Shown here piece by piece: positions 920 to 26,540 of a stretch of 31,651 bases of DNA. Below the pieces are notes generated by a model. The model was not told the DNA's origin, searched no databases, and was given only the letters and a program-made list of their open reading frames with translations. The stretch comes from a bacterium (GTDB lineage: Bacteria; Patescibacteriota; 4484-211; GCA-002791395), in assembly GCA_027002475.1 (NCBI GenBank), contig JALWZS010000001.1, positions 1 to 31,651 of the forward strand, written 5' to 3'. Position 1 is the stretch's first letter, and the number at the start of each line of letters is the position of its first letter. The position numbers and the translations under genes are program-made.

Positions 920-1045
920 CAAACAACGATCTAAAATTGCAAACAATACTAAAGAGACTCTTAACGTAGCCAAGAAGACTGCTTCTAGCTACTAATGCTC
1001 TTTAAATGTTCATGGGTTGTGATTTGATATTTGTAATTTGAACAT

Positions 1046-1432
1046 ATGTCTGACTCAATATACAAACAAAAAATCTTAGACTACATCGACGATCCAATAA
1101 ATAGTGGACAAATAAAAAAGCCTGACTTAAGGGCACATAAAAGTAATCCGCTATGTGGTGACGAGGTGGACATAACTATTCGACTTGACGGTGACGTGAT
1201 TAAAGATATTAAGTTTTCGTCTAAAGGATGCGCAATTTCAAAGGCGTATGCTTCCATGGCAACGGAGTTGGTTCAAGGTAAAACCTTAAAAGATATTCGA
1301 AAGATGACAGATGAGGATATTGTAAAAGAATTAAATATATGCTTAACTCCAGCTAGATTAAAGTGCGCTCTTCTTGGCTTTAGGACGATTAAAAAGGCAG
1401 CTGATGAAAAAAGCCGTCATCATGAGGAATGA
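1046..1432 (+). CDS. sufU: SufU/IscU-type Fe-S cluster scaffold (NifU N-terminal-like)
   Basis: NPLCGDEV, SKGCAISKAYASMATE and KCALLG motifs match SufU. ATG start at 1046, immediately downstream of sufS. Confidence 0.8.
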   Translation: MSDSIYKQKILDYIDDPINSGQIKKPDLRAHKSNPLCGDEVDITIRLDGDVIKDIKFSSKGCAISKAYASMATELVQGKTLKDIRKMTDEDIVKELNICLTPARLKCALLGFRTIKKAADEKSRHHEE

Positions 1433-1711: not shown

Positions 1712-2233
1712 ATGAGTGATAAAGCCCCAAATGGGAAAAAGAAAATGGCAGTTGGATGGTTCTCTTTTACCTGTTGTGAGGATAGTACTGTTCTTTTTAC
1801 AGAGCTTCTTAATGAAAACTATGACGAGTGGCGGAAGCTTGTTAATTTTCAGCACGTCAAAGCATTAAAAACCGACAACAAATTAGAAGGGTTGGACGTT
1901 GCGTTTGTTGAAGGTGCAATCTCGGCTCCAAGCCAAGAAAAAGAGCTTAAAGAAATCAGGGCAAACGCTAAATACCTTGTGGCGATTGGTTCGTGTGCAA
2001 GTACGGGGTTGCCATCAGCCAGCAGGAATGAATTTAGTGAAGATGACAAAACAGATAGAATCCGTTGGTATTTTGAGACGTTTGATTATGGTGAAAAGGT
2101 GAAACGACTTGACGAAGTTGTTAAGGTGGACGATTATGTAAAAGGATGCCCAATGAATGTGGATGTGTTCTTAGGGGTTCTAACTAAATATTTGCAGAAG
2201 TTTGGGTTGGTAGATAAGGACGTTACAAGTTAG
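1712..2233 (+). CDS. [NiFe]-hydrogenase small subunit (single proximal-cluster type, NuoB-like motif set)
   Basis: The proximal 4Fe-4S ligand motifs are FTCCEDS, GSCASTG and GCP. An alternative ATG lies at 1745 (MAVGWF...). The gene sits directly upstream of the large subunit. Confidence 0.75.
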   Translation: MSDKAPNGKKKMAVGWFSFTCCEDSTVLFTELLNENYDEWRKLVNFQHVKALKTDNKLEGLDVAFVEGAISAPSQEKELKEIRANAKYLVAIGSCASTGLPSASRNEFSEDDKTDRIRWYFETFDYGEKVKRLDEVVKVDDYVKGCPMNVDVFLGVLTKYLQKFGLVDKDVTS

Positions 2234-2315
2234 ATGTTTGTGGCGTCTTATTGCGGGTAAGAATCAAAAGCCATTGGACTGCCACGCTTCGCTCGCAGTG
2301 CCGTGGAATAATAAG

Positions 2316-3620
2316 ATGCATTCTGGGAATATAACAATAGAAAACATAACTAAAGTTGAAGGATCGGCTGGTCTTGAGGTAACTGTAGAAAACGGGCAGG
2401 TAAAGGATTTAAAGTTTAAGATTCAAGATTACCGACGTTTTTACACCGACGCTGTCAAAGGAAAACCGTTTATATCAGTACCGCTATTTTTATCTAGGAT
2501 TTGTGGGACCTGTTCTGTTGCGCATCTTTTTGCTTCCATTAAGGCCATTGAGAAAACACAGGGAATTGAGGTTAGCGAACAAACAAAGATACTACGTCGT
2601 CTTGCATATGACGCCTTGATGATTCGTGACCATGCGTTACACCTTTACTTTTTCGTCTTGCCTGATGTTTTGGGGATTGATTCAATCCTTGATATACCTG
2701 AGGATCATGACAATCCAGCACATATCCTTTTGCACGACTCCTTTGATATAAAGAAGGTAGGTTCCAAGATATCGGAGGCAATTATTGGTGCTGTGGTACA
2801 TGCACCTTATCCAACACCAGGTGGGTTTATTAAATTGCCCGACGATTCAATTTTTCCTGAGCTTATTGAGGATCTAGAAAAGATTCGTCCGCAGGTTATT
2901 CGAGGGATTAAGTTCTTTGCGAACTGGAAAGAGGAATTTATTAGAAACTCTGACTACTTAGCTCTTAGCTCAAATGAGCGTTATGCATTTTTAGAGGGAG
3001 ATGTTGTAAATAGCTCAGGTCGTAGAGTGGGGGAAGATAACTTCTACGACTTTTTAAGGTCTGTCGTTATCCCTTACTCGCAAGCTGAAGGATATGTGTT
3101 TTCTGATGTTCACGAGGACTATTTTGTGGGTTCACTTGCTAGACTTAACTTTAATAAAGACAAACTTAACGAATTTACTAAGCGAGATATTGCAAAATAC
3201 TTGGACTTATTCCCATCTGATAACATACATCACAACGATTTGGCACAAGCAATTGAGATCTTGCATTGTGTCGATGATGCTATAGATATCCTGAAAAACC
3301 TTAAGATAAAAGACGAGAAACCAATTAGGAAGGCGCCACAAAAGGGTAGAGGTGTTGGGGTTGTCGAGGCACCTAGAGGCATTTTGTACCATATGGCAGA
3401 AACTGATGAAAAGGGCATGATAGTTGATTATGATGTTATTGTCCCTACTTCACAAAACCAGATAAACATAGAAAACGACTTAAAAAAGTACTTTAATGAG
3501 AATATTGGTACAAAAAGTCGGGAGGAGCTTAAATTTGATGCTGAAAAGATAATACGAGCTTATGATCCTTGCATGTCTTGTGCTACCAACTTCCTTAAGA
3601 TGGAGTGGATTGATTCTTGA
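2316..3620 (+). CDS. [NiFe]-hydrogenase large subunit
   Basis: L1 motif RICGTCSVAH and L2 motif DPCMSCATN, with a 9-residue C-terminal tail. The N-terminal region (VEGSAG ... YRRFYTDAVKG) has a group 1-3-like architecture. The ATG at 2316 is preferred over the TTG at 2238. Confidence 0.8.
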   Translation: MHSGNITIENITKVEGSAGLEVTVENGQVKDLKFKIQDYRRFYTDAVKGKPFISVPLFLSRICGTCSVAHLFASIKAIEKTQGIEVSEQTKILRRLAYDALMIRDHALHLYFFVLPDVLGIDSILDIPEDHDNPAHILLHDSFDIKKVGSKISEAIIGAVVHAPYPTPGGFIKLPDDSIFPELIEDLEKIRPQVIRGIKFFANWKEEFIRNSDYLALSSNERYAFLEGDVVNSSGRRVGEDNFYDFLRSVVIPYSQAEGYVFSDVHEDYFVGSLARLNFNKDKLNEFTKRDIAKYLDLFPSDNIHHNDLAQAIEILHCVDDAIDILKNLKIKDEKPIRKAPQKGRGVGVVEAPRGILYHMAETDEKGMIVDYDVIVPTSQNQINIENDLKKYFNENIGTKSREELKFDAEKIIRAYDPCMSCATNFLKMEWIDS

Positions 3621-3955
3621 GGGATAGGCTTTCCCATAGGGATACCAATTATGGTTAGGCGTTTAAGCTTACCTAGTTTCTTTAAGTATTTTAGTTGAAA
3701 ATTAAGGTCAAAGTCATGTGCGGAAACTCTTGGTGAAAGCGCTAGGTTGTCAATCGCACTTTCATCAAATAGTGTTACTTTTTCTAAGCCTTGTACTGTG
3801 TCCATAATGACAACATGAGGCTCGTCGTCAAAGGGTAAATCCTCGTTGGGCTTAACAAAGCGCCAAGTAATTCCTTTAATATTTGTTGATGTAGCAATCT
3901 CAAGTGGCTTAGAATCAATTACTACGTCTGGATTTCCAAAGACGTAAATAGTCAT
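3560..3955 (-). CDS. Hydrogenase maturation endopeptidase (HycI/HoxW/FrhD family)
   Basis: Matches the family at VFGNPDVVIDS near the N-terminus and at VIMDTVQG and SAHDFDL. It is convergent with the large subunit and overlaps it by 61 nt. Confidence 0.65.
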   Translation of the reverse strand: MTIYVFGNPDVVIDSKPLEIATSTNIKGITWRFVKPNEDLPFDDEPHVVIMDTVQGLEKVTLFDESAIDNLALSPRVSAHDFDLNFQLKYLKKLGKLKRLTIIGIPMGKPIPQESIHSILRKLVAQDMQGS

Positions 3956-4023: not shown

Positions 4024-4734
4024 GTGGATATAAAGGCTTTGCAGCTTGCATGTAGGTTTGCGCTGCCTCCTAATGCTAAAGGGTATTGTGGTAGGAACAG
4101 TGCTCCTGCAAAATTCATAAAGTGCATAGAGCAGGGGAGCTGTGAAGAAGTGATGGAAGAGATTGAAAAATTTATTGTTTTGCACCCATACCTTAAAACA
4201 ATTGCTGATATTGTTGAAAAAAATAAATTCGACTACGATGTTATAGAGGCGTATTGGCTAGGAAACGACCTGTTAAAAAAGATAAAACCTTTTCATTATG
4301 ATTTACTTTTAGAAAACTTTGCGAAACAAGGAGTACCCGATTTTTTTATTAAGACTTTACAAGAAGAAAAACCCAAAGGGTTTGTACCAACACATCTTTT
4401 TCAAGTGATACATGTAGGTGTGGGGCGAGCAAGCGGTGTGGTCCCGTTTAATCTTGCAAGCATCAATGAATGTATGATTCGGTGGGGTAAAGTGCTAGAG
4501 ATAAATAATAAGTCTGCTTTAGTTTTAATAAATAGTCTTAAGCAGGAGGCTAAAATGTATGTTTTGGCTACTGAAGAAGTTACTATAAATCTTGAAAGCG
4601 GACTAGAAAGCAATTTGCAAGTTGGGCAGGCAGTTGCAGTTCATTGGGGAAATATTATAAAAGTTCTGAATGATGTTGAGATAGAAAAAATAGAATTTTG
4701 GACTAATAAAACGCTTGATGCTTGTAATCAGTAA
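4024..4734 (+). CDS. Hypothetical protein; N-terminus is Cys-rich and the C-terminal segment resembles the HypC core
   Basis: 236-aa ORF with a GTG start. Cysteines occur in GYCGRN...CIEQGSCEE. The C-terminal VGQAVAVHWGNIIKVL...EIEKIE resembles HypC VGDYVLVHVGFAIEKI. I did not recognise a known family. Confidence 0.45.
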   Translation: MDIKALQLACRFALPPNAKGYCGRNSAPAKFIKCIEQGSCEEVMEEIEKFIVLHPYLKTIADIVEKNKFDYDVIEAYWLGNDLLKKIKPFHYDLLLENFAKQGVPDFFIKTLQEEKPKGFVPTHLFQVIHVGVGRASGVVPFNLASINECMIRWGKVLEINNKSALVLINSLKQEAKMYVLATEEVTINLESGLESNLQVGQAVAVHWGNIIKVLNDVEIEKIEFWTNKTLDACNQ

Positions 4735-5633
4735 GCGGCTATTTGCTGTGGCTCGCTTGCTAAAGTTGCTTTATAAATAAGCCAGACACCTACCCCCACA
4801 AGTACTAATTGTGATAAGAACCCTTCGTTTAGTGTATGTGTGACAAAGAACGCTGAAAGAATGTTAGTGATTATTGTTGCTCCAACTAGGATTGACGCGA
4901 CCGTGATTGCAGGGGCATATTTTAGTGCTCTGTACCAAGTGGTTACATAAAGAAGAAGCGTTGACATAGTAATAACCATCCAAAACGCTTGTTCTGAGGA
5001 GATTTGTTTAAGACTACTAAGTGAAAACGAGCCGCTTATTGTCGCTATCAGGAGCAAAATTACTGCTCCGCCTGCCATTCTCGCAGTTGCTAATACATCC
5101 GGATCGAGCTTTTTTAACGCTTTTTTAGCAATGATTGTTTCTACTGCCCAAAGAATGGTTGCTGATAATACCATTAGCTCTCCTGTACTATATGTAAGAC
5201 CTTTAAATCCCCCGATCATGAAGTTGCTAATAAACAAAACCGTAACAGCAATAATCTTTGAAATAGTTGGCTTTTCTTTTAAGAAAAAGATGGCTAAAAT
5301 TGCTACCCAAATAACAAGCGTTTTGTGTATAAGTGCTGCATTTATTGCAGGAATAATTGATAGACCAGTAAAGAAAAGGTAAAAAGGCAAAGCCCCACCA
5401 ATTACAGCAATACTAACAAGAAGCAATTTTTGCTGCTTATTCACATGCAAGAGTGTTCGCCATTTTGCGGTTGCTAATATCCAAATAAGTAAAATCAGTC
5501 CAACACCGGCGTTTTTAATGGCTGTGAATGCGATTGGAGGTGTAATAGCGCCGACTGCAAACTTATTAACAAAAATTGCAATACCAGAAACAAGGGCTGT
5601 TAAAAAAGCTAACTTAACTCCTCGCTTAACCAT
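4728..5633 (-). CDS. DMT-superfamily (EamA-like) transporter
   Basis: About 10 predicted TM helices across 301 aa with a duplicated 5-TM architecture, and a glycine-rich hydrophobic composition. Confidence 0.6.
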   Translation of the reverse strand: MVKRGVKLAFLTALVSGIAIFVNKFAVGAITPPIAFTAIKNAGVGLILLIWILATAKWRTLLHVNKQQKLLLVSIAVIGGALPFYLFFTGLSIIPAINAALIHKTLVIWVAILAIFFLKEKPTISKIIAVTVLFISNFMIGGFKGLTYSTGELMVLSATILWAVETIIAKKALKKLDPDVLATARMAGGAVILLLIATISGSFSLSSLKQISSEQAFWMVITMSTLLLYVTTWYRALKYAPAITVASILVGATIITNILSAFFVTHTLNEGFLSQLVLVGVGVWLIYKATLASEPQQIAAY

Positions 5634-5679: not shown

Positions 5680-5931
5680 TTACGCGGGCCAGAGTTGTTC
5701 GCCGGTTTCGATATCTTTTACAATAATCGCCTTTACTGGGCAAGCTTGCGCAGCCATTAGGATTGTGTCTGGAAGATCAGAAGTCTCCTCATTCATTACT
5801 GCAATGTTGTTTTCATCTAGCTCGAATGTGTCGGGAGCCATTGCAACACATGTTGCCGCACCAATACAAACATCTCTTAGTAAAGTAACCTCGTATTTTC
5901 CGACCTTTATTACTTGTGTATTATCTGCCAT
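5680..5931 (-). CDS. Small ferredoxin (single [4Fe-4S]/[3Fe-4S] cluster type)
   Basis: CIGAATC...P...ACPVKAI motifs as in Pyrococcus-type ferredoxin. The ATG start is preceded by AAGGAGGTG with a 7-nt spacer. Confidence 0.75.
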   Translation of the reverse strand: MADNTQVIKVGKYEVTLLRDVCIGAATCVAMAPDTFELDENNIAVMNEETSDLPDTILMAAQACPVKAIIVKDIETGEQLWPA

Positions 5932-5948
5932 CAACTTACACCTCCTTT

Positions 5949-6806
5949 TTAACTATATGACTTTAGAATCTCTTTTAACCCATCTCGTTTAATTGGGATT
6001 TTAACAATTGGTGTTTGTTTTAATTGTGGGAAGTGTGACTCATTAGTTGGTTTTTCTACTTCATAAAATATACCAACAGGAATGTCATTTTCACCAAACT
6101 CCATTGCTTTCATAAATGCTGCTGCCTTATCTGTCCTGTCCCAGTCGTCAGGTAACGGAGTTGTGTTTTGTTGATAAAAAGTGTGAGTACAAACTTTGTG
6201 GAATGTAACGCAGGGTTGTAGTACGTCAATTATTGCGATTCCTTTGTGCTTGTTGGCCTTAATGAGTATCTCTTTTAGGTTTTTAATGTCACCTGAATAA
6301 ACTCTGGCAACAAATGTTGCGCCTGACGCAATTGCAAGCGCTGCTGGTGAAAACGGTTTGTCTGGGTTACCAAACGGTGTTGATTTAGTCGGATATCCTT
6401 GTTGAGTAGTTGGTGATGTTTGACCTGTTGTTAGCGAGTAAAGCTCGTTGTCATGAATAACTACTGTAATGTCATGATTACGCCTGCATGCGTGGATAAA
6501 GTGGTTTCCGCCTTCACCCATACAGCCACCGTCTCCGATGAAAGAAAATACATTAAGTTTATGGTTTGCCATTTTTATGCCTTCTGCAACTGGAAGTGCA
6601 CGACCATGTAATCCTTCAACCGAATTGATTTTTGTAAAGTTAACGATATGACCATTACAGCCAATATCTGCAGTCATTGCGGTGTTGGTATTATCCCAGC
6701 CTTGCTCTACTGCTGCATTTTTAAATGCTGCCCAAATTGTGTAGTTGCCGCATCCTGGACACCAGTTTGGTTGGTGTGGTGTTGCTAAATCAGCTAGCGT
6801 TGTCAT
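5949..6806 (-). CDS. 2-oxoacid:ferredoxin oxidoreductase beta subunit (TPP-binding)
   Basis: N-terminal WCPGCGN plus GDGG motifs. Its start overlaps the stop of the alpha subunit (ATGA). Confidence 0.85.
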   Translation of the reverse strand: MTTLADLATPHQPNWCPGCGNYTIWAAFKNAAVEQGWDNTNTAMTADIGCNGHIVNFTKINSVEGLHGRALPVAEGIKMANHKLNVFSFIGDGGCMGEGGNHFIHACRRNHDITVVIHDNELYSLTTGQTSPTTQQGYPTKSTPFGNPDKPFSPAALAIASGATFVARVYSGDIKNLKEILIKANKHKGIAIIDVLQPCVTFHKVCTHTFYQQNTTPLPDDWDRTDKAAAFMKAMEFGENDIPVGIFYEVEKPTNESHFPQLKQTPIVKIPIKRDGLKEILKSYS

Positions 6807-8533
6807 GAACTTACTCCTTTCTTTAGTACTTCTTCTATTTTATTTTGAATCTCCTTTGGATAAAATGGACGACCGTCGTATTTAAGTAACGTGTCATCAA
6901 CTACAAATCCAGTTTTTTCGCGAAGTAATCCGGTAAAGTGAGCGCCATAGTTTAACTCAGCACTAATTGTGTATTTTGCCTTTTCTAGCATTCTAGTTAG
7001 AGCCTGCGTTGGGAAGGGGTTCATCCACTTTACTTGGATAAAGTTGACATTGTCGTATTTTTCAATTGCTTGCAAGATTGCACCTTTGGTACTACCCCAA
7101 GAAATTATTGTAATGTCTGCATTTTCTGGGCCGTGCAGAACTGGTTCTTCCATGTCTTCTCTTGCACATGTTTCAAGCTTTCTCATGCGTTTTCGCATTT
7201 GGGTGTTTCGATTATCGATCTCTTCGCTTGAGTAACCGTATTCATCATGCTCGTCTGAGTTGGCAATAAAGAAGTTGCCGACACCAGCAGCTGAACGCAC
7301 GGAAATACCATCTTCGCTATCTGCGTAGCGTTTGTAGTTAGGAGTTGGCTCCATAGTAAACTTACCTCGATCTATCTTGTAGTCAGAGTAGTCAAAGTAT
7401 GGATAGTTTTGGTCGCTTTCACAAAGGTCTTTGTCGATGAGTACCACAACTGTAGTTTGGTACTTTTCTGCCAAATTAAACGCTTGCATTGTGGTATAAA
7501 AAACCTCTTTAGTATCACCAGGTGTTAGAACAATTCTTGGAAAGTCGCCTTGATGTGCATGCAAGACCAATCTTAAATCGCTTTGTTCACTCCAAGTTGG
7601 AAGTCCTGTTGCTGGTGCCCCGCGCATTCCTTCGATAATTACAAGTGGCGTTTCTGTAATTCCAGCAAGTCCGTAAGTTTCTGCCATTAAGCTAAACCCG
7701 CCGCCTGAAGTTGCAACCATTGACCTAGCACCTGCAAAAGCTGCTCCAATTGCCATATTCATTGCTGCTATCTCATCTTCCGGTTGTTTGTAAATGTAGT
7801 TAAACTCTTCTTGATGACGAGCCAATACATGTAAGATATTGGAGATTGGGGACATTGGGTAAATAGCTGCAAACTGCATACCAGCTGCAATTGCACCAAG
7901 CGCGGCTGCTTCGTTGCCGTTAAGTACCATTTTGTGCTCACCCTTTTCTGCTGGTTCTAGTGGGTTGGTAAATTTGTGTCCAAAGTTCTTGAGAGCAAAA
8001 TCGTAACCTAATTGAGCCGCTTTTTTGTCAGAAGCGACGATTTTTTCACCCTTATCACCAAATTCATCTTCAATGAGCTTAAACATGATGTTTAAATCTC
8101 CTCCCATAATTCCAACAACTGCCCCTAGCGCCACTGTGTTGATTAAAATGTCAGAGCCGCCTGCTTCCTTTGCAAACTGAGCTAGCGGAATAGGGCAAAG
8201 GTGAACAGTTTCAGGAACGTTATCAGTGTTTAATTTTTTGTCGGAATCGAAAAGGAGTCCAGCGCCAGGAGTTAGTTCCTCTAAATGTTTATCTATGGTT
8301 TCTTGATTTAGGGCAATTAAAAAGTCTATCTTGGACTGAGTGGCGGCAACGTTGCCTTTTGATATGTTTACCTGCATTACGTTATGTCCACCTCGAATGA
8401 TTGAGGGGTATTCAACGTGTGTGAAAATGTTATATCCGGATCGGCTGGCAAACCTAGCGAGTAAAATCCCAGAGGCCTTTATACCTTGTCCGGCCATGCC
8501 TCCAATTGTTACTGTAAAGATTTTACTTTCCAC
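6803..8533 (-). CDS. 2-oxoacid:ferredoxin oxidoreductase alpha subunit with a fused N-terminal gamma domain
   Basis: The N-terminus GGMAGQG...EYPSIIRGG is a POR gamma domain, followed by the alpha catalytic domain. The GTG start overlaps the upstream TAG by 1 nt and is preceded by AGAGAGG. Confidence 0.8.
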   Translation of the reverse strand: MESKIFTVTIGGMAGQGIKASGILLARFASRSGYNIFTHVEYPSIIRGGHNVMQVNISKGNVAATQSKIDFLIALNQETIDKHLEELTPGAGLLFDSDKKLNTDNVPETVHLCPIPLAQFAKEAGGSDILINTVALGAVVGIMGGDLNIMFKLIEDEFGDKGEKIVASDKKAAQLGYDFALKNFGHKFTNPLEPAEKGEHKMVLNGNEAAALGAIAAGMQFAAIYPMSPISNILHVLARHQEEFNYIYKQPEDEIAAMNMAIGAAFAGARSMVATSGGGFSLMAETYGLAGITETPLVIIEGMRGAPATGLPTWSEQSDLRLVLHAHQGDFPRIVLTPGDTKEVFYTTMQAFNLAEKYQTTVVVLIDKDLCESDQNYPYFDYSDYKIDRGKFTMEPTPNYKRYADSEDGISVRSAAGVGNFFIANSDEHDEYGYSSEEIDNRNTQMRKRMRKLETCAREDMEEPVLHGPENADITIISWGSTKGAILQAIEKYDNVNFIQVKWMNPFPTQALTRMLEKAKYTISAELNYGAHFTGLLREKTGFVVDDTLLKYDGRPFYPKEIQNKIEEVLKKGVSS

Positions 8534-11391
8534 TATGAAAACCTCTCTTTATAAATCTTATCTTTTGTGGCGCCATTTGCAAGTAGCACTTCTGTTGCGC
8601 TTTCTATCATTGCTGGGTGACCACACAAATACGTGCTTGTATCGCTTGCATCTTTAAAGTTTTCTTTTACTAACTCGGTGACAAATCCAGAATGTCCTTT
8701 CCACTTAGTCGTTGGTTTCCAGATTACATATTCAAAGTTAAAGTTTTTGTATTTTCGTTTTAGTGCTTCGAAGTGTTTTTTCCAGAATATCTCCTTTTCG
8801 TAGCTTAATCCGAAATAGAGCGTAATCGGACGTTTTTCGTTTAGTTTAGTTAGTGCCGTGTCAATCATGCATCGGACTGCACTAATCCCTGAGCCAGTAG
8901 CTAAAAATAGCAAGCGCTTAGAGTTGTCGTTATGATTGAAGGTAAACATTCCAAATGGTCCCATATAGGTCATGATGTCGCCGACCTTTAGTTTGTCAAA
9001 AAACTGTGAGCCTGGTCCTCCGGGGCGGGTATCAACAAGTAAGCCAAAGTGGTATTCGTCGGTATAGGTGGCAATAGAGTAAGCACGGATGTTTTTAGGG
9101 TCGACTTTTACACTGATATATTGACCGGGTTTTAAAAGTAATGGGGTTTGTGTTTTAAATTCTAAATAGTTAAATTGAGTTGCCAAGACTTCGTGTTTTG
9201 TGCATGTGGCGGTTTGTAATTGTGGTGGCTTTGGGGTGGGCTTTGCTCCGTCTCTTAGGATGATTTTTCCATCAACGGCAAATACATCATTTAACGTGAC
9301 AACAACTGGGTTTATCTCGATATCACTAGCGTTTGTGGCTTTTTCGGCAAGCTTGCCAACCTTTACAATCAGGTCATATAGTTTATCAAGTGCATAAGGA
9401 GGATCGCCTCTGTAACCATTTAGTATTTTAGCAATCTTTGACTTTTGCACCAGGGCTTTTGCTTCTTCGTGACCTATCGGAAACAACTGTAGGTTTCTAT
9501 CTTCAATAACTTCCGCATATGTTCCGCCAGCGCCAAACAACATTACATTACCAAATGTTGGGTCTCTTTTAACACCGACTATAACCTCGATCCCTTGCAT
9601 AATTTGTTGTTGAATTTGAATTTTAGTTTTGCTTTGAACCTCTTTATCAAGCTCACCGAGTACATGTGTTAGTTGGTTAAAGGCACTATCGAGCATATTG
9701 GGGTTTTTAATATTTGTTATCACGCCGCCAGCATCTTTTTTATGAAGAAGTCCTGGTGCGGAAAGCTTTAAAACAACAGGCCACCCATTCTCCATTGCAA
9801 ATACTGTTGCCTCATGTACGTCTTTAACGTATTTGGTTTTTGGGGTGTTAAGCCCGCAATGTCTTAATACTTCATCTGCTTCGATATTGCCAAGTGTCTT
9901 GTCTTTACTACTTATTGCTTTGTTTATTACGTCTTGAATTGCTGAAAGGTTTATATTGACTTCTTTTGTCTCATTTTTGGTCTTTTGCGTATGTTTTAGA
10001 GTGTGTTGCTTGAAACGCCACATTCTAGAGATTGCCGCAATTGCTTGTTCTGGAAACCTAAATGATGGGATTTTGTAGGAGTTTAAGATTTCTTCGCCTT
10101 CTTTTATTAGCCGTCCTCCAATAAATGCGCAAAAGATTGGTTTCTTGTACTTATTCCAGAGCCTTCCAATTGTTTTAGCGGTCTTTTCAACTTCTGTCAT
10201 AACTTGTGGTGTAAGGATGACAACTACTGAGTCAACCTCATCACTTGGCAGGATCGCTTCTAGTGCTTGAGAGTAACGTTTGGCTAATGCATCTCCGAGT
10301 ACATCAACAGGGTCTTTTATTGCAGCTTCACGTGGTAAGTTCTTTTTTAGTTCCTCTTGGGTTTCCTTACTCAACTTAGCAAGTTCAAGCCCACTGCTTT
10401 CAACTGCATCGGCGCTTATAACAGCAGGACCACCCGCGTTAGAAACTATAGCAACTCTAGGACCTTTGGGCAGTTCGCTCCATGCAAATGCGCGTGAAAG
10501 TAAGAAGAATTCTTCGAGTGTTTCGCAGTGGACAACTCCTGCTTGTTTCATCGCAGCCTTTAAAACATCATTGCTTCCTGCAATTGCACCAGTGTGTGAT
10601 TGCATTGCGTGTACCGCCGCTTTAGTTTTTCCAGGTTTTAGAAGGAGTATCGGATTTTTTTTAGAGATCTCTGTAGTTAAGCGTAAGAATTCTTTCCCGT
10701 TTGAAATTGACTCTAGATAGAGACCGATAGGAGAGAGCGAAGATAATCCATCTTGGTGAACTTCTTTAGGCAATTCGTTTTCTAGAAAGTATTTTAAAAA
10801 GTCGTTTTCTGTTAGGTCTGCTTTATTTCCAAGCGTTATAAACTCGCTATAGCCTAAATCTACACTGTCGAACCAGTCAAAGAGACTCGATGCGATTGCT
10901 CCTGATTGAGTTATATAACGCAAGTTTCCAGGAGTTGGAACGGATTGGGCAAATGTTGCATTGACCGGTAGGATGTTATTGACGAATCCTAAGCAGTTAG
11001 GTCCTAATATGTTCATGGAGTACTTTTGAGCAGTGTTTGTAACTTTTTTCTCAAGTACTTTCCCTTGGGAGCCTGCTTCTTTAAAACCTGCTGAAATTAT
11101 GATTACATTTTTTACATTACGTTCTCCTAATTCGTTTAGTACGTTGGGTACTATGTCGGCTGGCACAACAACTATTGCAAGGTCTGGTGGCTCTGGTAGG
11201 TCTAGAATGCTGTTACAAACCTCAAGTCCTTGAATATGCTTTGCATGCGGATTAACAGGATACACTTTACCTTCGTATTTAGAGTTAATAATGTTTCGAA
11301 GAATTATAGAACCAGTTTTTTTCTCAGAGCGGGAAGCTCCAATTACTGCTATAGATTTTGGGGCAACGAAGCTACTTAAATTGCAATCCAC
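8533..11391 (-). CDS. ADP-forming acetyl-CoA synthetase (fused alpha-beta, ACD) with a C-terminal ferredoxin-NADP reductase-like FAD/NAD(P)-binding domain
   Basis: The N-terminus KSIAVIGAS...VNP is a CoA-binding domain and an ATP-grasp beta domain follows, together about 700 aa. After a Pro-rich linker PTPKPPQLQ come RAYSIA, GGPGSQF, ATGSGIS, YLCGHP and a terminal ERF, which are hallmarks of the FNR family. Confidence 0.75.
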   Translation of the reverse strand: MDCNLSSFVAPKSIAVIGASRSEKKTGSIILRNIINSKYEGKVYPVNPHAKHIQGLEVCNSILDLPEPPDLAIVVVPADIVPNVLNELGERNVKNVIIISAGFKEAGSQGKVLEKKVTNTAQKYSMNILGPNCLGFVNNILPVNATFAQSVPTPGNLRYITQSGAIASSLFDWFDSVDLGYSEFITLGNKADLTENDFLKYFLENELPKEVHQDGLSSLSPIGLYLESISNGKEFLRLTTEISKKNPILLLKPGKTKAAVHAMQSHTGAIAGSNDVLKAAMKQAGVVHCETLEEFFLLSRAFAWSELPKGPRVAIVSNAGGPAVISADAVESSGLELAKLSKETQEELKKNLPREAAIKDPVDVLGDALAKRYSQALEAILPSDEVDSVVVILTPQVMTEVEKTAKTIGRLWNKYKKPIFCAFIGGRLIKEGEEILNSYKIPSFRFPEQAIAAISRMWRFKQHTLKHTQKTKNETKEVNINLSAIQDVINKAISSKDKTLGNIEADEVLRHCGLNTPKTKYVKDVHEATVFAMENGWPVVLKLSAPGLLHKKDAGGVITNIKNPNMLDSAFNQLTHVLGELDKEVQSKTKIQIQQQIMQGIEVIVGVKRDPTFGNVMLFGAGGTYAEVIEDRNLQLFPIGHEEAKALVQKSKIAKILNGYRGDPPYALDKLYDLIVKVGKLAEKATNASDIEINPVVVTLNDVFAVDGKIILRDGAKPTPKPPQLQTATCTKHEVLATQFNYLEFKTQTPLLLKPGQYISVKVDPKNIRAYSIATYTDEYHFGLLVDTRPGGPGSQFFDKLKVGDIMTYMGPFGMFTFNHNDNSKRLLFLATGSGISAVRCMIDTALTKLNEKRPITLYFGLSYEKEIFWKKHFEALKRKYKNFNFEYVIWKPTTKWKGHSGFVTELVKENFKDASDTSTYLCGHPAMIESATEVLLANGATKDKIYKERFS

Positions 11392-11452
11392 TTAACTAGT
11401 GTATGTAAATTTGTCTCTAGTGTCAAAACTGTACGAGGGGTATACTTAAAGT

Positions 11453-12288: not shown

Positions 12289-12807
12289 TTATTTAGGTAT
12301 CCACTCGCCGTTTGTTGCTTGATCTGCTATGGCTTCACAGCTTTCTAGGCCATCTAGGTTGTTGTCAAAAACGTTAGCCCCGTCGCATATGTAGCCGAAA
12401 CTACCTGTTGTCGTTTGGTAGCAGTAATGAACATGCGTTGAACTGCTAGGACAGTCGTATATATTAGGTGCTCCGGCTAGGGTTGTTGCAATCCATGCGT
12501 TTTCTTTATCTGCTGTTCGAGAGTAGTATGCACACCCATCTGGAACGAATTTGAGATCTTTCATTGGGACTATATCGTTTATGTCTGCAGGATATTCCAA
12601 AAAATTTCGTACGTGCCATGTTTCAATTGCATTGGCGCATTGACCGATGTCGTTAATATCCCCGATGTCACGTGCCCGATTCATCATTTGAGTTGGATTA
12701 ACAGCGGTCATTACAATACTTGCTACAATGGCGATTACTGCGATAACAACAAGAAGCTCAATTAAAGTAAATCCTGACTGTGGGGAATAATAAGAATTTG
12801 TGTTCAC
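12289..12807 (-). CDS. Type IV pilin / pseudopilin (prepilin-type N-terminal methylation domain)
   Basis: Leader MNTNSYYSPQSG followed by FTLIELLVVIAVIAI. The C-terminal domain carries several Cys pairs. Confidence 0.85.
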   Translation of the reverse strand: MNTNSYYSPQSGFTLIELLVVIAVIAIVASIVMTAVNPTQMMNRARDIGDINDIGQCANAIETWHVRNFLEYPADINDIVPMKDLKFVPDGCAYYSRTADKENAWIATTLAGAPNIYDCPSSSTHVHYCYQTTTGSFGYICDGANVFDNNLDGLESCEAIADQATNGEWIPK

Positions 12808-13135: not shown

Positions 13136-13543
13136 TTAGGACTCAAACTCTGAGTAAGAAGAGCTTTCAAATGTACCAGTTGCGAAATAATTTTTTACTT
13201 TTTGTACAAGTTGGGTTGGGAGTACATTTATTTTAAGAATATATCCTTGGGCGCCAATTCTAAATGCCTCTTCAACAACACTTTCTTGTCCTAAATTGGT
13301 CAGCATTATTGTGGGAGTATCCTTAGTTGTGGGGTTACTTTTTATGGCGCGAAGAATGTCTATGCCGTTTGTGCCAGGAAGCATAATATCAAGTAAGATT
13401 AGGTCATATTTTTGGGTTGTGGCTAATTCTAGGCCGTTGTTCCCTTCAACTGCTTGCGTTATTAAATAACCCGCTTTGGAAAGCTCCCGCGAGTATGTTT
13501 CTAGTATAAATGGTTCATCTTCGACTATAAGAATCTTTTTCAT
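13136..13543 (-). CDS. Stand-alone response regulator receiver (CheY-like)
   Basis: KILIVEDE...DLILLDIMLPG receiver motifs. 135 aa with no output domain. Confidence 0.85.
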   Translation of the reverse strand: MKKILIVEDEPFILETYSRELSKAGYLITQAVEGNNGLELATTQKYDLILLDIMLPGTNGIDILRAIKSNPTTKDTPTIMLTNLGQESVVEEAFRIGAQGYILKINVLPTQLVQKVKNYFATGTFESSSYSEFES

Positions 13544-13554
13544 AGCTATATAGT

Positions 13555-14853
13555 TTAACTCTTTTTGTCATCTCCCTCGCGGTATGTGGGTAGGGCGAAC
13601 GAGAATACAGTTCCTTTGCCTTCAACACTCTCAACCCATATCCTACCACCCTGCATCTCTATGAGTTTCTTAGCAATGTATAAACCTAGCCCTGTCCCTT
13701 TAGATCCTTGCTCTAGCAACGAACTAACCCTGTAAAACTTTTCAAACATGTGTGGTAATGCCTCGACAGGAATTCCTTGCCCGGTATCTTTAACTGATAT
13801 CGTTACTTGGTGACCACCGGGTTGGTAGTGCAGTGAAACAGTGACAGAGCCTTTAGCTGTGTAGCTAATAGCGTTAGAAACAAGGTTGTCTATTATTTGC
13901 CTAATGTATTTTGGATCTCCTTTAACTCGTGGAACGTCACCAGGAGGTCTAATGTATGCAAACTTTAGATTTTTTTCTTTAGCGTCTGGTCTAAAGCTAG
14001 TCATAGTTTTTTCGATAATGTCATTGATATCAACTGGCATGAGGTTTAGTTTCACTTTATGGCGTTCTATCTGAGAGACAGAAAGCAGGTTACTCATCAA
14101 ATTTACTAATCTGTCTGAAGCAAGCAAGGCGTGTTCTAAGAACTTTCTGTGTACTGGTTGCAAATAATATTCGGTCTCGTTAATAAGAAGCTCTAAGTAT
14201 CCGCGAATTGAAGTCATTGGAGTTCGTAGCTCGTGGGCGGCCATTGCTACAAAGTCTAGTTTCATTTTTTCTAGGGCTTGTTCTTCTGTGATGTCTTGCA
14301 TCAAAACAACAACTCTTTTTTTGTGAGTGTTTGGATCTTCGTAGGGGCTAACACTCACGTTAAGATAAACGGTTTCATCTTTAAAATAAAGCTGTAGGTT
14401 TTTTAGTTGTTGCTGTTGCCCGCTTTGTAGGGCTTTGTTTATTGGGTCTTTATCTGCGCCTATGTAGATGGAGTCCCCTGTGTCTGAAAAGAGGGGTAGT
14501 ACTTCTGTGTAAGACTTTCCTTGAACGCTATCGATATCCTTGCGTAGTATTTTAAGGGCCGATTGGTTGGCATATTCAAATGAGCCGTTTTCATTAAATA
14601 CAAGGACCGCCTCTGCAATACTGTCAAATATATTCATTCCCTCATTTATGCCACTAGTCTCGCCTTTTTTACTAAATAGGAATAAGTAGGCAAGGTTAAG
14701 CGTTGCTGTGATTATTAAAGTAAGTAGCATGAGAAGACTACTTGTTTGCACGCTAAATGGCAGGGCTTTTGTGTAAAGTAGTACGGCAAATAAAACGCTA
14801 ATTATTGAAACAGAAAGAATAAGAAGTTTGGCAGTATTAGTGGATTTATCCAT
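13555..14853 (-). CDS. Sensor histidine kinase (2 TM, PAS, HisKA, HATPase)
   Basis: H-box HELRTPMTSIRGY and G-boxes GTGLGL. It lies directly upstream of the receiver on the same strand. Confidence 0.85.
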   Translation of the reverse strand: MDKSTNTAKLLILSVSIISVLFAVLLYTKALPFSVQTSSLLMLLTLIITATLNLAYLFLFSKKGETSGINEGMNIFDSIAEAVLVFNENGSFEYANQSALKILRKDIDSVQGKSYTEVLPLFSDTGDSIYIGADKDPINKALQSGQQQQLKNLQLYFKDETVYLNVSVSPYEDPNTHKKRVVVLMQDITEEQALEKMKLDFVAMAAHELRTPMTSIRGYLELLINETEYYLQPVHRKFLEHALLASDRLVNLMSNLLSVSQIERHKVKLNLMPVDINDIIEKTMTSFRPDAKEKNLKFAYIRPPGDVPRVKGDPKYIRQIIDNLVSNAISYTAKGSVTVSLHYQPGGHQVTISVKDTGQGIPVEALPHMFEKFYRVSSLLEQGSKGTGLGLYIAKKLIEMQGGRIWVESVEGKGTVFSFALPTYREGDDKKS

Positions 14854-14958: not shown

Positions 14959-16236
14959 ATGTCGTTTAATAAACTGCTCGATTTGTATAAAAGGTTAACT
15001 GTTAATGGATTGTATGACGATGTGGGAGAGGACGACCTACGTCGTATTCGAACGATTAACTCTGTGAGCATAATTCTTTTAGCCGCTTTGGTTTTGTTCA
15101 TGGTTATCGATGGATTATTCTTCAGGCGTGTGTATGTAGTAATGGTAGAGGCTATGGCTTTTGTTACAGGGGCTTACTATTTGTACATACAACGCAAGAT
15201 CCGCGACATTAACTTAATATCTCACTTTGCAACGGCAATCATTACGTTTTCGATGTTTGGCATCAGTCTTTTAAGTGGCGTGGGTACCTCGACTGCGTTT
15301 TGGTTTTTCTTTATCCCCCCGTTTGCGTTTTATGTCAACGGAGCAAGGGGCGGGCTTATTTGGTCTTTTGTAAACTTTGCTTGGTTGCTGTTACATATGA
15401 TATTAGGGGTTTTTCACATCTACGGTATTCCGGTCGGATGGGATTTTGCTGTAAACCTACTACTGGCATTTTTGGTTGTTGTCATATTGGCGTATTTATT
15501 TGAGCGTTCGCGTGCTGCTGCTGTCAACAATTTAGCCAGCGCGAATGACGAGATGCGGCGGTTAATTTATGTAGTGTCGCATGATCTAAGGACACCGCTT
15601 ACTGCGCTTCGTGGGTATTCGGAATTTTTGCGAGAAGATATAGATGCAAACAACACAGAAGACATACGAACGGATATCGACAGGATTGACCTAATGGCAA
15701 AGAATTTGGGCTCTATGATCGATGATTTGCTTAATTTAAGCCGGATCGGCCGTCAGGTTAGTGAAGATGAAATGGTGAATACAAGAGAAGTCATAGATTT
15801 AGTCGTAGCTGGTAATGAGCCTCAGCTTTTAGAAAAGAAAATAAAGGTAGATATCGTTGAGCCTCTGCCTCGTTTGTATATGAATAGGCGAAAATTTGAA
15901 GAGATCCTAAGAAACCTTATGTCTAATGCAATAAAGTATATTGGAGACGCTAAGGAGCCTTTAATAAGAATTGGTGCGTATGATAGGGATGATGAGTACC
16001 ATTTTTATGTGAAAGATAACGGAATAGGAATTGATAAAAAAGACTTTGATGAGATATTTAAACTCTTTGTTAGAAAAACAGACATGGGTGAAGGCTCAGG
16101 CATTGGACTATCTATTGTAAAAGGATTTGTTGAAGATATGGGAGGGCGTGTTTGGGTTGAGTCTGAATTAGGAAAGGGCAGTACGTTTTGGTTTTCTGTT
16201 CCCAAAAAAGAACCGCCAAAAGAAGGTGAGCAATAA
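14959..16236 (+). CDS. Sensor histidine kinase with a polytopic membrane N-terminal domain
   Basis: About 6 TM helices, followed by VSHDLRTPLTALRGY, a DNGIGID N-box and GSGIGLSIV. Confidence 0.85.
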   Translation: MSFNKLLDLYKRLTVNGLYDDVGEDDLRRIRTINSVSIILLAALVLFMVIDGLFFRRVYVVMVEAMAFVTGAYYLYIQRKIRDINLISHFATAIITFSMFGISLLSGVGTSTAFWFFFIPPFAFYVNGARGGLIWSFVNFAWLLLHMILGVFHIYGIPVGWDFAVNLLLAFLVVVILAYLFERSRAAAVNNLASANDEMRRLIYVVSHDLRTPLTALRGYSEFLREDIDANNTEDIRTDIDRIDLMAKNLGSMIDDLLNLSRIGRQVSEDEMVNTREVIDLVVAGNEPQLLEKKIKVDIVEPLPRLYMNRRKFEEILRNLMSNAIKYIGDAKEPLIRIGAYDRDDEYHFYVKDNGIGIDKKDFDEIFKLFVRKTDMGEGSGIGLSIVKGFVEDMGGRVWVESELGKGSTFWFSVPKKEPPKEGEQ

Positions 16237-16295
16237 CTTCTAACTTAATTCCGTAAAGCTTTTGCGGTAGTACCGTAGTGGTATCATTCATAAAG

Positions 16296-17189
16296 ATGAA
16301 AAACACGGCAGACGCTAACGTGGTAGAAAATGGCATTGTTGAGGGTATTTCGTTGTTTAAGGCTAATGTAAATGGCATAGATGTTAATTTTGCGAAAGTC
16401 GGACAAGGTCCTGCTATTATTTTAGTTCACGGATTAACAAATAATTGGTTTGGGTGGGGCAGAGTGATAGAGTTTTTAAAGGACGACTTTACTCTTTATA
16501 TTCCAGACTTACTTGGCTACGGACATTCCGGGGATTTTAACGGCGATTACTCGTTGCAGCAACAAGCGCAATTTATCTCAGACTTTATTGATACTCTTGA
16601 AATTAAGCCGGTGGCTGTAATGGGGGTTTCTATGGGCAGTTTGGTTACGGCGGAGGTGGGTAAGTTGATTGGCGATAGATTGAAGTCTGTAATCTTGGTT
16701 AGTCCGCTTCTGCATCCAGCGCGTCATAGTTATTTAAAGGTCTTTTTTTGGCGGCAGCTTAATAAATTAATGTTAAAAAGAGACTTTTTAATGAGAGCTT
16801 ATAAGAGGTTCATAGCAACCCGATTTATGTCTCATTCATTATCTTTTTTCCTTAATATGTGTAGGTATGATTTTAAACTTGTTGAGAAATATGGGTTTGT
16901 TGGAAAACGGCTAATGCGCACTAAAACGTATTTACAGATGAGTCTGTCAGTTAGTTTGTATGACCTTCGTGAGTTCTTGCAGATTTATACTGATAATATC
17001 CTTTTGATTTATGGGAAATGTGATCGTGTAGCTAGACCGCGTCATGCTTACGATATTGTTGCCTCTAAGGCAGATACAATGAATATTGTAGAAATTGACA
17101 GCGCTGGACATTGGGTACAAGTAGAAAAACCTGAAGAGCTATCAAATGCGGTAAAAAAGTATTTAACGGCAATACTTAGTAATGATTAA
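16296..17189 (+). CDS. Alpha/beta-fold hydrolase
   Basis: ILVHGLTNNWFGW and a GVSMGS nucleophile elbow. An alternative GTG start lies at 16278. Confidence 0.7.
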   Translation: MKNTADANVVENGIVEGISLFKANVNGIDVNFAKVGQGPAIILVHGLTNNWFGWGRVIEFLKDDFTLYIPDLLGYGHSGDFNGDYSLQQQAQFISDFIDTLEIKPVAVMGVSMGSLVTAEVGKLIGDRLKSVILVSPLLHPARHSYLKVFFWRQLNKLMLKRDFLMRAYKRFIATRFMSHSLSFFLNMCRYDFKLVEKYGFVGKRLMRTKTYLQMSLSVSLYDLREFLQIYTDNILLIYGKCDRVARPRHAYDIVASKADTMNIVEIDSAGHWVQVEKPEELSNAVKKYLTAILSND

Positions 17190-18075
17190 GAGTAACTGGG
17201 TAAAGATTGTAGCGATTACTACTCTTATTGCGATTGTTCTTGTTGCCATAGTTTCTTTTTATGGATGGTATAAACTGCATGAGCTTTTGCATGTACACAT
17301 TGCTCCAGGAGACAAAACACCAAGCGATTACGGGCTAACTTACGAAGGTTACAGTTTTAAGTCTCTTGATGACATAGATCTTGCAGCTTGGTATGTTCCA
17401 GTAGAAAATCCTAAAGCAGTTATTATTATTGCACATGGCTATAACGATTCTGGGAAAGTTGAGTTTTTACCGTACGCGAGATTCTTACACGATAATGGCT
17501 ATGCTTCTTTTCTTTTAGACCTTCGGGCATTTGGTTATAGCAGTGGCAACCAAGTTAGTATTGGAACTAAAGAGTGGCAAGATGTGGTGGCTGCGTATGA
17601 CTTTGTGCGAGATAACTTAGTTGACTCCAATGTGTCTGTGGGGTTTTTAGGTAAATCGCTAGGTGCTGCAACGGTTGTTATAGCTAATGGATACACGGGT
17701 AAAGGGGACTTTGTGATTGCTGAGGTCCCTTATGCACATTTTGTGGGATTGTTTGAACCACAAATGAAGGAGCGAGGATACTCAGCTGTTCTTATGCCGT
17801 TTTTAAAGATTGCAATGTATTTTGAACTAGGCTTTGGTTACACAAAGTTTGAGCCAATCAAAATGGCAAAGAATATAACGGTGCCGCTTTTGGCAATTAG
17901 TGCGCAGTACGATGAGTCTGTATATCCAACAGATGCAAAGGAAATATACGAGACTGCTAAAGGAGAGAAAGTGTATTGGTTTGCACCATCTGGACATAAC
18001 GTTTACATAGATCTATCAGAAGAGTATAAAAACAAAGTAACAGATTTCCTTGATACGTACGTTGCAAAAGATTGA
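17182..18075 (+). CDS. Alpha/beta-fold hydrolase with an N-terminal TM anchor
   Basis: IIIAHGYNDSG and GKSLGAA. The 8-nt ATGATTAA overlap with the preceding gene places the two in one operon. Confidence 0.7.
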   Translation: MIKSNWVKIVAITTLIAIVLVAIVSFYGWYKLHELLHVHIAPGDKTPSDYGLTYEGYSFKSLDDIDLAAWYVPVENPKAVIIIAHGYNDSGKVEFLPYARFLHDNGYASFLLDLRAFGYSSGNQVSIGTKEWQDVVAAYDFVRDNLVDSNVSVGFLGKSLGAATVVIANGYTGKGDFVIAEVPYAHFVGLFEPQMKERGYSAVLMPFLKIAMYFELGFGYTKFEPIKMAKNITVPLLAISAQYDESVYPTDAKEIYETAKGEKVYWFAPSGHNVYIDLSEEYKNKVTDFLDTYVAKD

Positions 18076-18179
18076 TCCATTTTAAAGCTTTGCGCCAACA
18101 CGTTTGGGGCTATAGGGTATAATTGATCCAACTTAGAACCTTTTCATTTTTTCTGCTTCTCTCACTAAGGAGGTGAGAA

Positions 18180-26036: not shown

Positions 26037-26042
26037 TAAAAA

Positions 26043-26462: not shown

Positions 26463-26477
26463 GAACAGCAACTGACT

Positions 26478-26535: not shown

Positions 26536-26540
26536 ATGGA

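Follow-up and report, generated by a model that had tools for sequence, protein, structure and literature searches.

One gene in the window, the 31,651-nucleotide stretch of contig JALWZS010000001.1 (assembly GCA_027002475.1) that was analysed here in full, joins a predicted ADP-forming acyl-CoA synthetase (ACD) in frame to a module of the ferredoxin-NADP reductase (FNR) family. The gene (8533..11391, minus strand) precedes the genes of a two-subunit 2-oxoacid:ferredoxin oxidoreductase (OFOR) and of a small ferredoxin. With a probability of roughly 0.6, the OFOR would form acyl-CoA and reduced ferredoxin, the ACD part would use the acyl-CoA for ATP formation, and the FNR module would re-oxidise the ferredoxin onto NAD(P)+, with a hydrogenase encoded nearby as a second outlet. 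Judging by its protein neighbours, the source organism is probably a very small-celled, groundwater-type bacterium of the candidate phyla radiation (CPR) belonging to the Microgenomates/WWE3 lineage.

The fusion is encoded by a single uninterrupted open reading frame (ORF) that begins with GTG at position 11391 and comprises 952 codons and a stop; the plus-strand frame across the same positions is full of stops. Seven Pfam domains were detected, six of them non-overlapping, plus PF02629, and all six main domains exceeded the curated cut-offs against which they were judged. From the N-terminus, these minus-strand features are a CoA-binding Rossmann subdomain (residues 12-138, 10978..11358; CoA_binding_2, PF13380, E 1.2e-24; also PF02629), a Succ_CoA_lig subdomain (residues 154-301, 10489..10932; PF13607, E 5e-37), a CoA-ligase subdomain (residues 313-456, 10024..10455; Ligase_CoA_2, PF19045, E 2.7e-7) and the ATP-grasp, or ACD beta, part (residues 492-712, 9256..9918; ATP-grasp_5, PF13549, E 5.8e-58). 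A Pro/Lys-rich interdomain linker (residues ~713-729, 9205..9255) leads to the FAD-binding beta-barrel (residues 730-817, 8941..9204; FAD_binding_6, PF00970, E 3.4e-10; 40.6 bits, cut-off 21.1) and to the NAD(P)H-binding domain with the C-terminal tail, which runs to residue 952 (8536..8907; NAD_binding_1, PF00175, residues 829-932, E 3.6e-19; 69.9 bits, cut-off 22). An earlier note on this DNA had described one 952-residue ORF without in-frame stop or frameshift, composed of a complete fused alpha-beta ACD and an FNR-family module of about 240 residues. The translation bore this out, as did the profile matches of the four ACD domains and of the two domains of the C-terminal module (~225-240 residues); the position that it had guessed for the linker, 9270-9330, was off by about 50 nucleotides.

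Homologues differ in both the sequence and the length of the linker, some of them carrying as many as about 18 additional residues, yet the frame is always kept, a hallmark of a real tether between domains. In the AlphaFold2 model of the fusion, with a mean predicted local distance difference test (pLDDT) score of 85.7 and a predicted template modelling (pTM) score of 0.68, the segments of low confidence were residues 255-272 (the swinging loop) and the two linkers at residues 471-475 and 715-722, the latter with pLDDT below 50; the rest was modelled confidently.

Residues 1-712 are predicted to form a complete fused alpha-beta ACD. The five subdomains of this class (two CoA-binding subdomains, one CoA-ligase subdomain, ATP-grasp and lid) were found, and this part matched the 4-hydroxybutyryl-CoA synthetase of Nitrosopumilus (Nmar_0206; PDB 8wzu) over its full length (E 1.6e-120). 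The Foldseek comparison of the model with the PDB gave a TM-score of 0.89 to 8wzu, normalised to the target. Conservation of motifs was read from an alignment of 40 homologues (A1), in the numbering of the window protein. H266 in an SHTGA motif (codon 10594..10596) occupies the position of the swinging-loop phospho-histidine, and H550 in LLHKKDAGGV (codon 9742..9744) that of the second catalytic histidine; both are invariant in 40 of 40 homologues. H266 aligns to H256 of Nmar_0206, and H550 to H535 of the same structure as well as to the HKSD motif of 4xyl_B and 1wr2. In the ACD mechanism, H256 and H535 of Nmar_0206 are the two carriers of the phosphoryl group (PMC11494057). Scores against NCBIfam equivalog models stayed below the cut-offs: TIGR02717, for ADP-forming acetate--CoA ligase, gave 503.5 bits (cut-off 567), and NF045493, NF045494 and NF045492 scored far under theirs, so that identity as a 4-hydroxybutyrate/3-hydroxypropionate ligase was not reached either. 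Since all equivalog cut-offs were missed, the ACD part is assigned to the superfamily only, with a predicted ACD activity and no specific acyl ligase identity.

The C-terminal ~225 residues are predicted to be an FNR-family module for flavin adenine dinucleotide (FAD) and NAD(P)H with intact motifs. In the first flavin motif, R769-A-Y771-S772, Y771 and S772 are invariant, and R769 is replaced by Asn in 19 of the 40 aligned homologues; in the second, G792-P-G794-S795, the three numbered residues are invariant. The NAD(P)H motif T832-G-S-G835-I-S-A838 keeps T832, G833 and G835 in all or nearly all sequences, and the proline position of G-x-G-x-x-P is Ala (A838) in the window protein and 19 of 40 homologues and Pro in the other 21. 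A Y921-L-C923-G924 motif is also present, with its three numbered residues invariant or nearly so, as is E949 in the C-terminal E949-R-F951, of which F951 is kept in 37 of 40 homologues. Thus, the two-domain fold, the flavin motifs and the NAD(P)H motifs of the FNR superfamily were all found, and both halves of the protein look catalytically intact.

In the same alignment, residues 769, 838, 863, 925 and 950 covary and define two subtypes of the module: R/A/(T,S)/H/R in 21 sequences including that of the window, and N/P/R/N/K in 19 sequences. The subtypes may differ in their handling of flavin or pyridine nucleotide. A preference for NADH or NADPH was not read from S863, the position that is T/S or R depending on the subtype, since named relatives with either residue use NADH.

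The best named relatives of the module were the reductase parts of MmoC, BenC, AntC, Fre and NqrF, and the Foldseek matches of the C-terminal part included the FAD domain of NqrF, cytochrome b5 reductase and T4moF, each with a probability of 1.00 at 20-26% identity. No NCBIfam equivalog was reached (MmoC was best, with 125 bits against a cut-off of 500), and models for PetH-type FNR gave 37-41 bits against cut-offs of 600-635. No Fe-S domain was detected in the module by Pfam or NCBIfam. It is therefore best placed, by sequence likeness, in the BenC/MmoC/NqrF/Fre class without the usual [2Fe-2S] domain, rather than with plant- or bacterial-type FNR proper.

The fusion is not a singleton. Among 120 listed protein clusters of homologues (50-58% identity, 940-1018 residues), all 120 showed the same seven-domain architecture. 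These homologues come from Patescibacteria, WWE3, Woese- and Roizmanbacteria and Microgenomates, and their source names are 'acetate--CoA ligase family protein', 'acetyltransferase' or 'hypothetical protein' only. In addition, one genome per bacterial species was scanned with an alignment spanning the junction (residues 640-952), which yielded 78 loci; together with three further loci, these were classified by tblastn and a frame check. Of these loci, 56 carry the fusion in frame; with few exceptions they come from species-representative genomes (WWE3, Levy-, Roizman-, Ames- and Daviesbacteria), and WWE3 bacterium RAAC2, whose genome is closed (CP006914), is among them. The identical 952-residue product was also obtained when run SRR14510437 was assembled independently. 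The survey of related genomes that the earlier note had called for thus revealed a lineage-wide fusion in Microgenomates/WWE3. Labels such as 'uncultured Saccharibacteria', 'uncultured Gammaproteobacteria' and 'Woesearchaeota' were not accepted as a spread beyond this range; they look like placeholders or mis-binned sequences, and the proteins concerned share 45-56% identity with proteins from named WWE3 and Levybacteria genomes.

The architecture was unfamiliar to the note's author, and full-text literature searches returned no description of an ACD-FNR fusion; PMC7143001, PMC3812714, PMC7304191 and PMC13198582 make no mention of it. The protein is an uncharacterised, lineage-wide fusion of two well-known modules and not categorically new, its sequences being already public under uninformative names.

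The fusion gene stands first in an operon with OFOR and ferredoxin genes, as had been proposed from the letters alone. Downstream on the minus strand lie the genes of the OFOR alpha subunit, in which gamma and alpha parts are fused (6803..8533; TIGR03710, 627 bits, above cut-off; POR and POR_N), of the thiamine pyrophosphate- and [4Fe-4S]-containing beta subunit (5949..6806; TIGR02177, 293 bits, above cut-off; TPP_enzyme_C and PFO_beta_C) and of an 84-residue single-cluster ferredoxin with three cysteines (C-x2-A-x2-C ... C-P), a [3Fe-4S]-type protein (5680..5934; Fer4_13 and Fer4_15). The stop codon of the fusion overlaps the GTG start of OFOR-alpha in TAGTG; just upstream of that start, within the 3' end of the FNR part, there is a Shine-Dalgarno-like GAGAGG. 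In related locus L053, the stop codon of a free-standing FNR gene overlaps the OFOR-alpha start in a similar way, and these overlaps suggest translational coupling.

Gene order was conserved. The FNR domain or gene was followed directly by OFOR-alpha in 62 of 63 related loci, OFOR-beta was present in 54 of 55 and the ferredoxin in 49 of 53, and the three-cysteine CxxAxxC pattern was found in all but one of 50 ferredoxin copies. The order ACD-FNR, OFOR-alpha, OFOR-beta, three-cysteine ferredoxin is nearly invariant across 50-60% sequence divergence, and a fusion of 37% identity (P0124) retains the four-gene core with no hydrogenase within 8 kb. Malic enzyme, enolase and phosphoenolpyruvate (PEP)-utilising genes occur near the cluster in some related loci.

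Upstream of the fusion, a promoter-like TTGACA-17-TACACT (11398..11426, minus strand) ends 6 nucleotides before the GTG start. The promoter and terminator scan returned no more sites than shuffled sequences did, in fact fewer, and this single site is a weak, positional pointer. The GTG itself directly follows a TAA stop, 6 nucleotides past the -10-like hexamer (11389..11426, minus strand), with no Shine-Dalgarno motif visible. The mRNA may have no leader or almost none, which would be unusual for a GTG start.

The origin of the fusion can be approached through a few related genomes in which the FNR gene is free-standing (230-239 codons) and always lies directly before OFOR-alpha (L053, L056, L059, L060, L061 and L071); in L053, L056, L060 and L061 its product has 230-235 residues. 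No ACD gene lies upstream in L053, and none was detected upstream of the FNR gene in L060. The place of the ACD is taken by an AMP-binding, AMP-forming acyl-CoA synthetase gene in L056 (2471..4935) and L061 (5266..7678), so that the CoA-ligase slot of the operon can apparently be filled by either an ADP-forming or an AMP-forming enzyme. In L059 and L071, an unfused ACD (749 and 724 residues, respectively) is encoded 2.5-3 kb upstream of the FNR gene. Since the FNR gene stays before OFOR-alpha when the ACD is detached, absent or replaced, it belongs functionally to the OFOR/ferredoxin system, to which the ACD would be a frequent, though not obligatory, covalent partner. Between the ACD and FNR-OFOR genes of L059 (482..5904) and L071 (1811..7699), there is a Pyr_redox_2 flavoprotein gene of NDH-2/thioredoxin-reductase-like type and a flavodoxin gene on the opposite strand, which points to alternative electron carriers in this neighbourhood.

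In a crude neighbour-joining tree of the FNR parts, L059, L060 and L071 stood at the base of the OFOR-linked clade, and L053, L056 and L061 fell inside the fused clade. This topology fits one fusion event between neighbouring genes, with fission as an occasional later, secondary event. A search of 1.84 billion representative proteins with the FNR part alone identified standalone proteins of about 232 residues as the nearest non-fused relatives; proteins of seemingly intermediate length turned out to be fusions that lack part of the N-terminus because the sequence is a fragment.

More distant standalone members of the FNR clade (30-39% identity) adjoin SufS/NifU genes in other CPR genomes. In L065 (5702..7711), L067 (5730..7708) and L069 (679..3234), the standalone FNR gene comes right after cysteine desulfurase (and NifU) genes in Fe-S assembly operons, and in L069 it directly precedes a Fer4_13 ferredoxin gene. 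These two proteins may be a CPR reductase/ferredoxin pair that serves Fe-S cluster biogenesis.

On this basis, the following sequence of reactions is proposed. First, the two-subunit OFOR would decarboxylate a 2-oxoacid, most likely pyruvate, to acyl-CoA and CO2 and thereby reduce the co-encoded three-cysteine ferredoxin. Second, the N-terminal 712 residues of the fusion would convert acyl-CoA, ADP and Pi to the acid, CoA and ATP via phospho-H550 and then phospho-H266 on the swinging loop. Third, the FNR module, with a flavin that is probably FAD and an NAD(P)H site, would take single electrons from reduced ferredoxin and pass a hydride to NAD(P)+, so that oxidised ferredoxin is regenerated. 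Where the minimal [NiFe] hydrogenase is present, the same ferredoxin could alternatively be discharged as H2, which would make the ferredoxin a hub. Two neighbouring genes of the operon are the most likely source of the fusion, which would ensure that ATP formation and ferredoxin recycling are provided in a 1:1 ratio beside the OFOR and might also let the two activities assemble together. The domain content, the conservation of catalytic motifs, the gene order and the split forms are observed, whereas the substrate, the direction of electron flow, the flavin (FAD or flavin mononucleotide, FMN), the choice of NAD or NADP and any physical complex are inferred.

Two observations support the partnership of reductase and ferredoxin in particular. 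The lack of an Fe-S domain in the FNR module means that single electrons must be exchanged with another protein, and the operon ferredoxin is the only conserved candidate. The FNR-Fer4_13 and FNR-SufS/NifU neighbourhoods in other CPR genomes also point to an FNR-ferredoxin partnership. Furthermore, metabolic reconstructions of CPR genomes posit pyruvate:ferredoxin oxidoreductase (PFOR), ACD and a 'ferredoxin-NADP reductase' as the terminal fermentation route, as separate annotations (PMC7143001, PMC3812714); in the present case, two of these entries are one protein. The suggestion of the earlier note that the product combines ATP formation from acyl-CoA with electron exchange between ferredoxin and NAD(P)H is the reading that the comparative context favours most, and we infer it in this sense.

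Several points weigh against it. The potential of a three-cysteine, [3Fe-4S]-type ferredoxin may be close to that of NAD(P)H or exceed it, and MmoC, BenC, NqrF and Fre run from NADH to [2Fe-2S] centres or flavin and not from ferredoxin to NAD(P)+. The best named matches of the ACD part are 4-hydroxybutyrate/3-hydroxypropionate ligases, which form CoA esters, and the AMP-forming ligase in place of the ACD in two lineages bears on the direction of the pathway. The split forms show that the fusion is dispensable. The pTM score of the AlphaFold2 model, together with its disordered linker, gives no support for docking of the FNR module on the ACD.

The strongest competing explanation starts from the hydrogenase encoded in the same island. 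On the plus strand, the window encodes a [NiFe] hydrogenase small subunit of 173 residues with only the four cysteines of the proximal cluster (1712..2233) and a large subunit of 460 residues (2238..3620); the matches of this pair were NCBIfam ShyA/HydA and HydD and PDB 5yxy and 9nez, and no hydrogenase beta or gamma subunit genes were found beside them. They are followed by a gene for a HycI-like maturation protease (3560..3955, minus strand; PF01750, a weak match), one for a DUF6390 protein (4024..4734, plus strand; PF19927) and one for an EamA/DMT-family transporter (4728..5633, minus strand; PF00892). Counted in the 40 loci with enough flank, the large subunit occurs in 29, the HycI-like protein in 31 and the transporter in 27. 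DUF6390 was present in 28 loci with the hydrogenase and in none without it; since it occurs only where the hydrogenase does, it may be a hydrogenase accessory or partner protein. It carries a C-x11-C-x5-C stretch near its N-terminus. Just upstream of the hydrogenase genes, a NifS-type cysteine desulfurase gene, cut by the window edge, and a NifU-like scaffold gene (together 35..1432) extend the island by Fe-S assembly functions.

This hydrogenase appears to be a minimal group-3b-like enzyme and corresponds to the type that Jaffe et al. 2020 named 'hyd2' (PMC7304191). In hyd2, the small subunit is truncated to about 164 residues and the beta and gamma partners were described as unknown; a protein with an NAD-binding motif, on the other strand, and an Fe-S family were reported nearby (PMC7304191). 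The former is very probably the ACD-FNR fusion and the latter probably the three-cysteine ferredoxin.

It is conceivable, therefore, that the FNR module and the small ferredoxin replace the gamma and beta subunits as the NAD(P)H (diaphorase) arm of this hydrogenase, with NAD(P)H-linked production or uptake of H2 as their main job. The missing beta and gamma genes, the small subunit reduced to its proximal cluster, the shared island and the vacant partner positions of hyd2 beside an NAD-binding-motif protein would all fit, and the module is weakly similar to the sulfhydrogenase gamma subunit (E 1e-8 to 1e-11; PDB 9nez_C). However, these matches amount to 44-51 bits against cut-offs of 395-650 for group 3b gamma, BenC, MmoC and NqrF match better, and the module has just three scattered cysteines and no cluster-type motif such as that of gamma. 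The four-gene core also occurs without the hydrogenase in 9 of the 40 loci and in the divergent L083. The FNR part abuts OFOR-alpha and never the hydrogenase genes, which are divergent or convergent to it and, in the window, several kb away on the opposite strand. We consider this explanation unlikely as the main role, while service to both hydrogenase and OFOR would be compatible if the ferredoxin is a shared hub.

Somewhat less probable is an operation of the pathway in the assimilatory direction, in which the ACD or the AMP-forming ligase makes the CoA ester, NAD(P)H or H2 reduces the ferredoxin, and the OFOR acts as a 2-oxoacid synthase that fixes CO2. AMP-forming acyl-CoA synthetases, as found in the two lineages, usually work towards the CoA ester; the ACD part has its closest named relatives among the CoA-ester-forming ligases of the thaumarchaeal cycle, and in relatives of the FNR module the electrons normally flow from NAD(P)H to Fe-S centres. 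On general thermodynamic grounds, however, both the transfer from NAD(P)H to a low-potential ferredoxin and the reductive carboxylation of acetyl-CoA are uphill without energy coupling. In the literature, CPR bacteria of this group are moreover portrayed as fermenters that degrade sugars to pyruvate by glycolysis, have few biosynthetic capacities and do not fix carbon (PMC7143001, PMC3812714), and the malic enzyme, enolase and PEP-utilising genes near some loci fit pyruvate as an input.

Still less weight is given to a module that never contacts ferredoxin and serves, by analogy with PatZ, as a Fre-like reductase of free flavin or metal or as an NAD(P)H-sensing regulator of the ACD. Fre was among the better NCBIfam matches (E 3e-28), the arginine of R-x-Y-S is Asn in about half of the homologues, and PatZ, the top structural match, is a precedent for an ACD scaffold with an accessory C-terminal domain. 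The adjacency of FNR and OFOR-alpha even without an ACD argues against an ACD-centred role, though, and the full set of hydride-transfer motifs is kept, as is the ferredoxin in the operon. Finally, a wrong joining of two adjacent genes by assembly or annotation was rejected as practically negligible, since the junction, its linker always in frame, recurs in the 56 loci, nearly all of them from separately assembled genomes and including CP006914, in 120/120 listed clusters and in the reassembly of the same run.

The proposed coupling of OFOR, ACD and FNR through the ferredoxin can be taken one step further. ACD-FNR, OFOR and the three-cysteine ferredoxin might form one particle, a metabolon with the activities of a pyruvate:NAD(P)+ oxidoreductase and an acetate thiokinase, whose ferredoxin also plugs into hyd2; this extension is tentative, and we would rather expect it to fail than to hold. 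If true, the metabolon would replace pyruvate dehydrogenase, phosphotransacetylase and acetate kinase in ultra-small bacteria. With hyd2 included, the island would be a switchable outlet to NAD(P)H or H2, and hyd2 would gain its missing electron-transfer chain.

CPR bacteria, or Patescibacteria, account for a large share of bacterial diversity, are fermentative and possess almost no respiratory machinery. The disposal of reduced ferredoxin after pyruvate oxidation is usually drawn in their metabolic reconstructions as a generic 'FNR or hydrogenase' box. The fusion is a specific and conserved candidate for this step of ferredoxin recycling, genetically tied to the OFOR, to a dedicated three-cysteine ferredoxin and to ATP formation, and it places the truncated hyd2 hydrogenase in the same island. 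The four-gene module makes the terminal energy metabolism of a major CPR lineage directly testable. It further offers a clear Rosetta-stone example of how enzyme partnerships can be inferred, one in which the reductase half is invisible in current database annotations.

Elsewhere in the window, the gene at 12289..12807 (minus strand) encodes a protein that resembles type IV pilins and has a methylation motif at its N-terminus, as is typical of CPR genomes; it is followed by a PAS histidine kinase/response regulator pair (13136..14853), a further kinase (14959..16236) and three tandem alpha/beta-hydrolase paralogues of S33/S9-like type (16278..19109), the third of which lies in a stretch with a GC content of 0.51 as compared to about 0.39. 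A second GC-rich stretch (26000..29055; 0.49-0.51) carries an SPFH/Band-7 gene (26595..27836, minus strand) and then a tyrosine recombinase/integrase gene (28042..29055), and may have been laterally acquired. A second Band-7 gene lies at 23895..24866. Scans of the window with Rfam and for tRNA genes returned no match.

Several known systems resemble parts of the window protein. Fused ACDs such as Nmar_0206 (8wzu) and ACD1 of Korarchaeum (PDB 4xyl) have the same order of five subdomains as residues 1-712 and share both phospho-histidines, and the swinging loop of the window protein is predicted to be mobile. Unlike them, the window protein bears the additional C-terminal FNR-family module of about 225 residues. 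To our knowledge, no ACD with such a module has been solved or characterised. In PatZ, the ACD-like part is regulatory. PatZ/Pat lysine acetyltransferases (PDB 9it0 and 9isq) combine an ACD-like alpha-beta body of about 700 residues with a C-terminal catalytic domain, as is seen here, and PatZ was the best whole-chain match of the model in the Foldseek search of the PDB. Its C-terminal domain is a GNAT acetyltransferase, however, in place of which the window protein has the FNR module, and its sequence similarity to the ACD part is much lower (E 1e-77, compared to 1e-120 for 8wzu).

BenC, MmoC, AntC, T4moF, NqrF and Fre share with the C-terminal module the FAD_binding_6 plus NAD_binding_1 fold, the motifs R-x-Y-S, G-x-G-S, T-G-S-G and C-G, and the C-terminal aromatic residue. 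Except for Fre, they bear a plant-type [2Fe-2S] ferredoxin domain of their own, which the window module does not, and feed oxygenases or a quinone reductase; the N-terminal partner here is an ACD. The gamma subunit of group 3b [NiFe] hydrogenases (sulfhydrogenases) is also an FNR-like FAD/NAD(P)H protein, and the window module is encoded near a group-3b-like hydrogenase. True gamma subunits contain a motif for an Fe-S cluster, and their genes form one transcription unit with those of alpha, beta and delta, whereas the window module is fused to an ACD in an OFOR operon.

A parallel in logic is pyruvate:NADP+ oxidoreductase (PNO) of Euglena and Cryptosporidium, in which PFOR is fused to a module of cytochrome-P450-reductase type (flavodoxin plus FNR) that needs no free ferredoxin. 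In both cases, electrons from a PFOR-type pyruvate oxidation would pass to NADP+ via a covalently attached flavoprotein module. The window protein carries a bare FNR module on the ACD, the enzyme that acts after the OFOR in the pathway, and the ferredoxin has a gene of its own. By Pfam and NCBIfam domain content, it does not belong to the PNO family: the reductase sits on the ACD, no flavodoxin-like FMN domain was detected, and the OFOR is a separate two-subunit enzyme. The earlier note had seen a superficial resemblance of the domain order to PFOR-reductase fusions, with an ACD in place of PFOR as the partner. By analogy, the window protein would nevertheless reach the same net coupling as PNO through a free ferredoxin.

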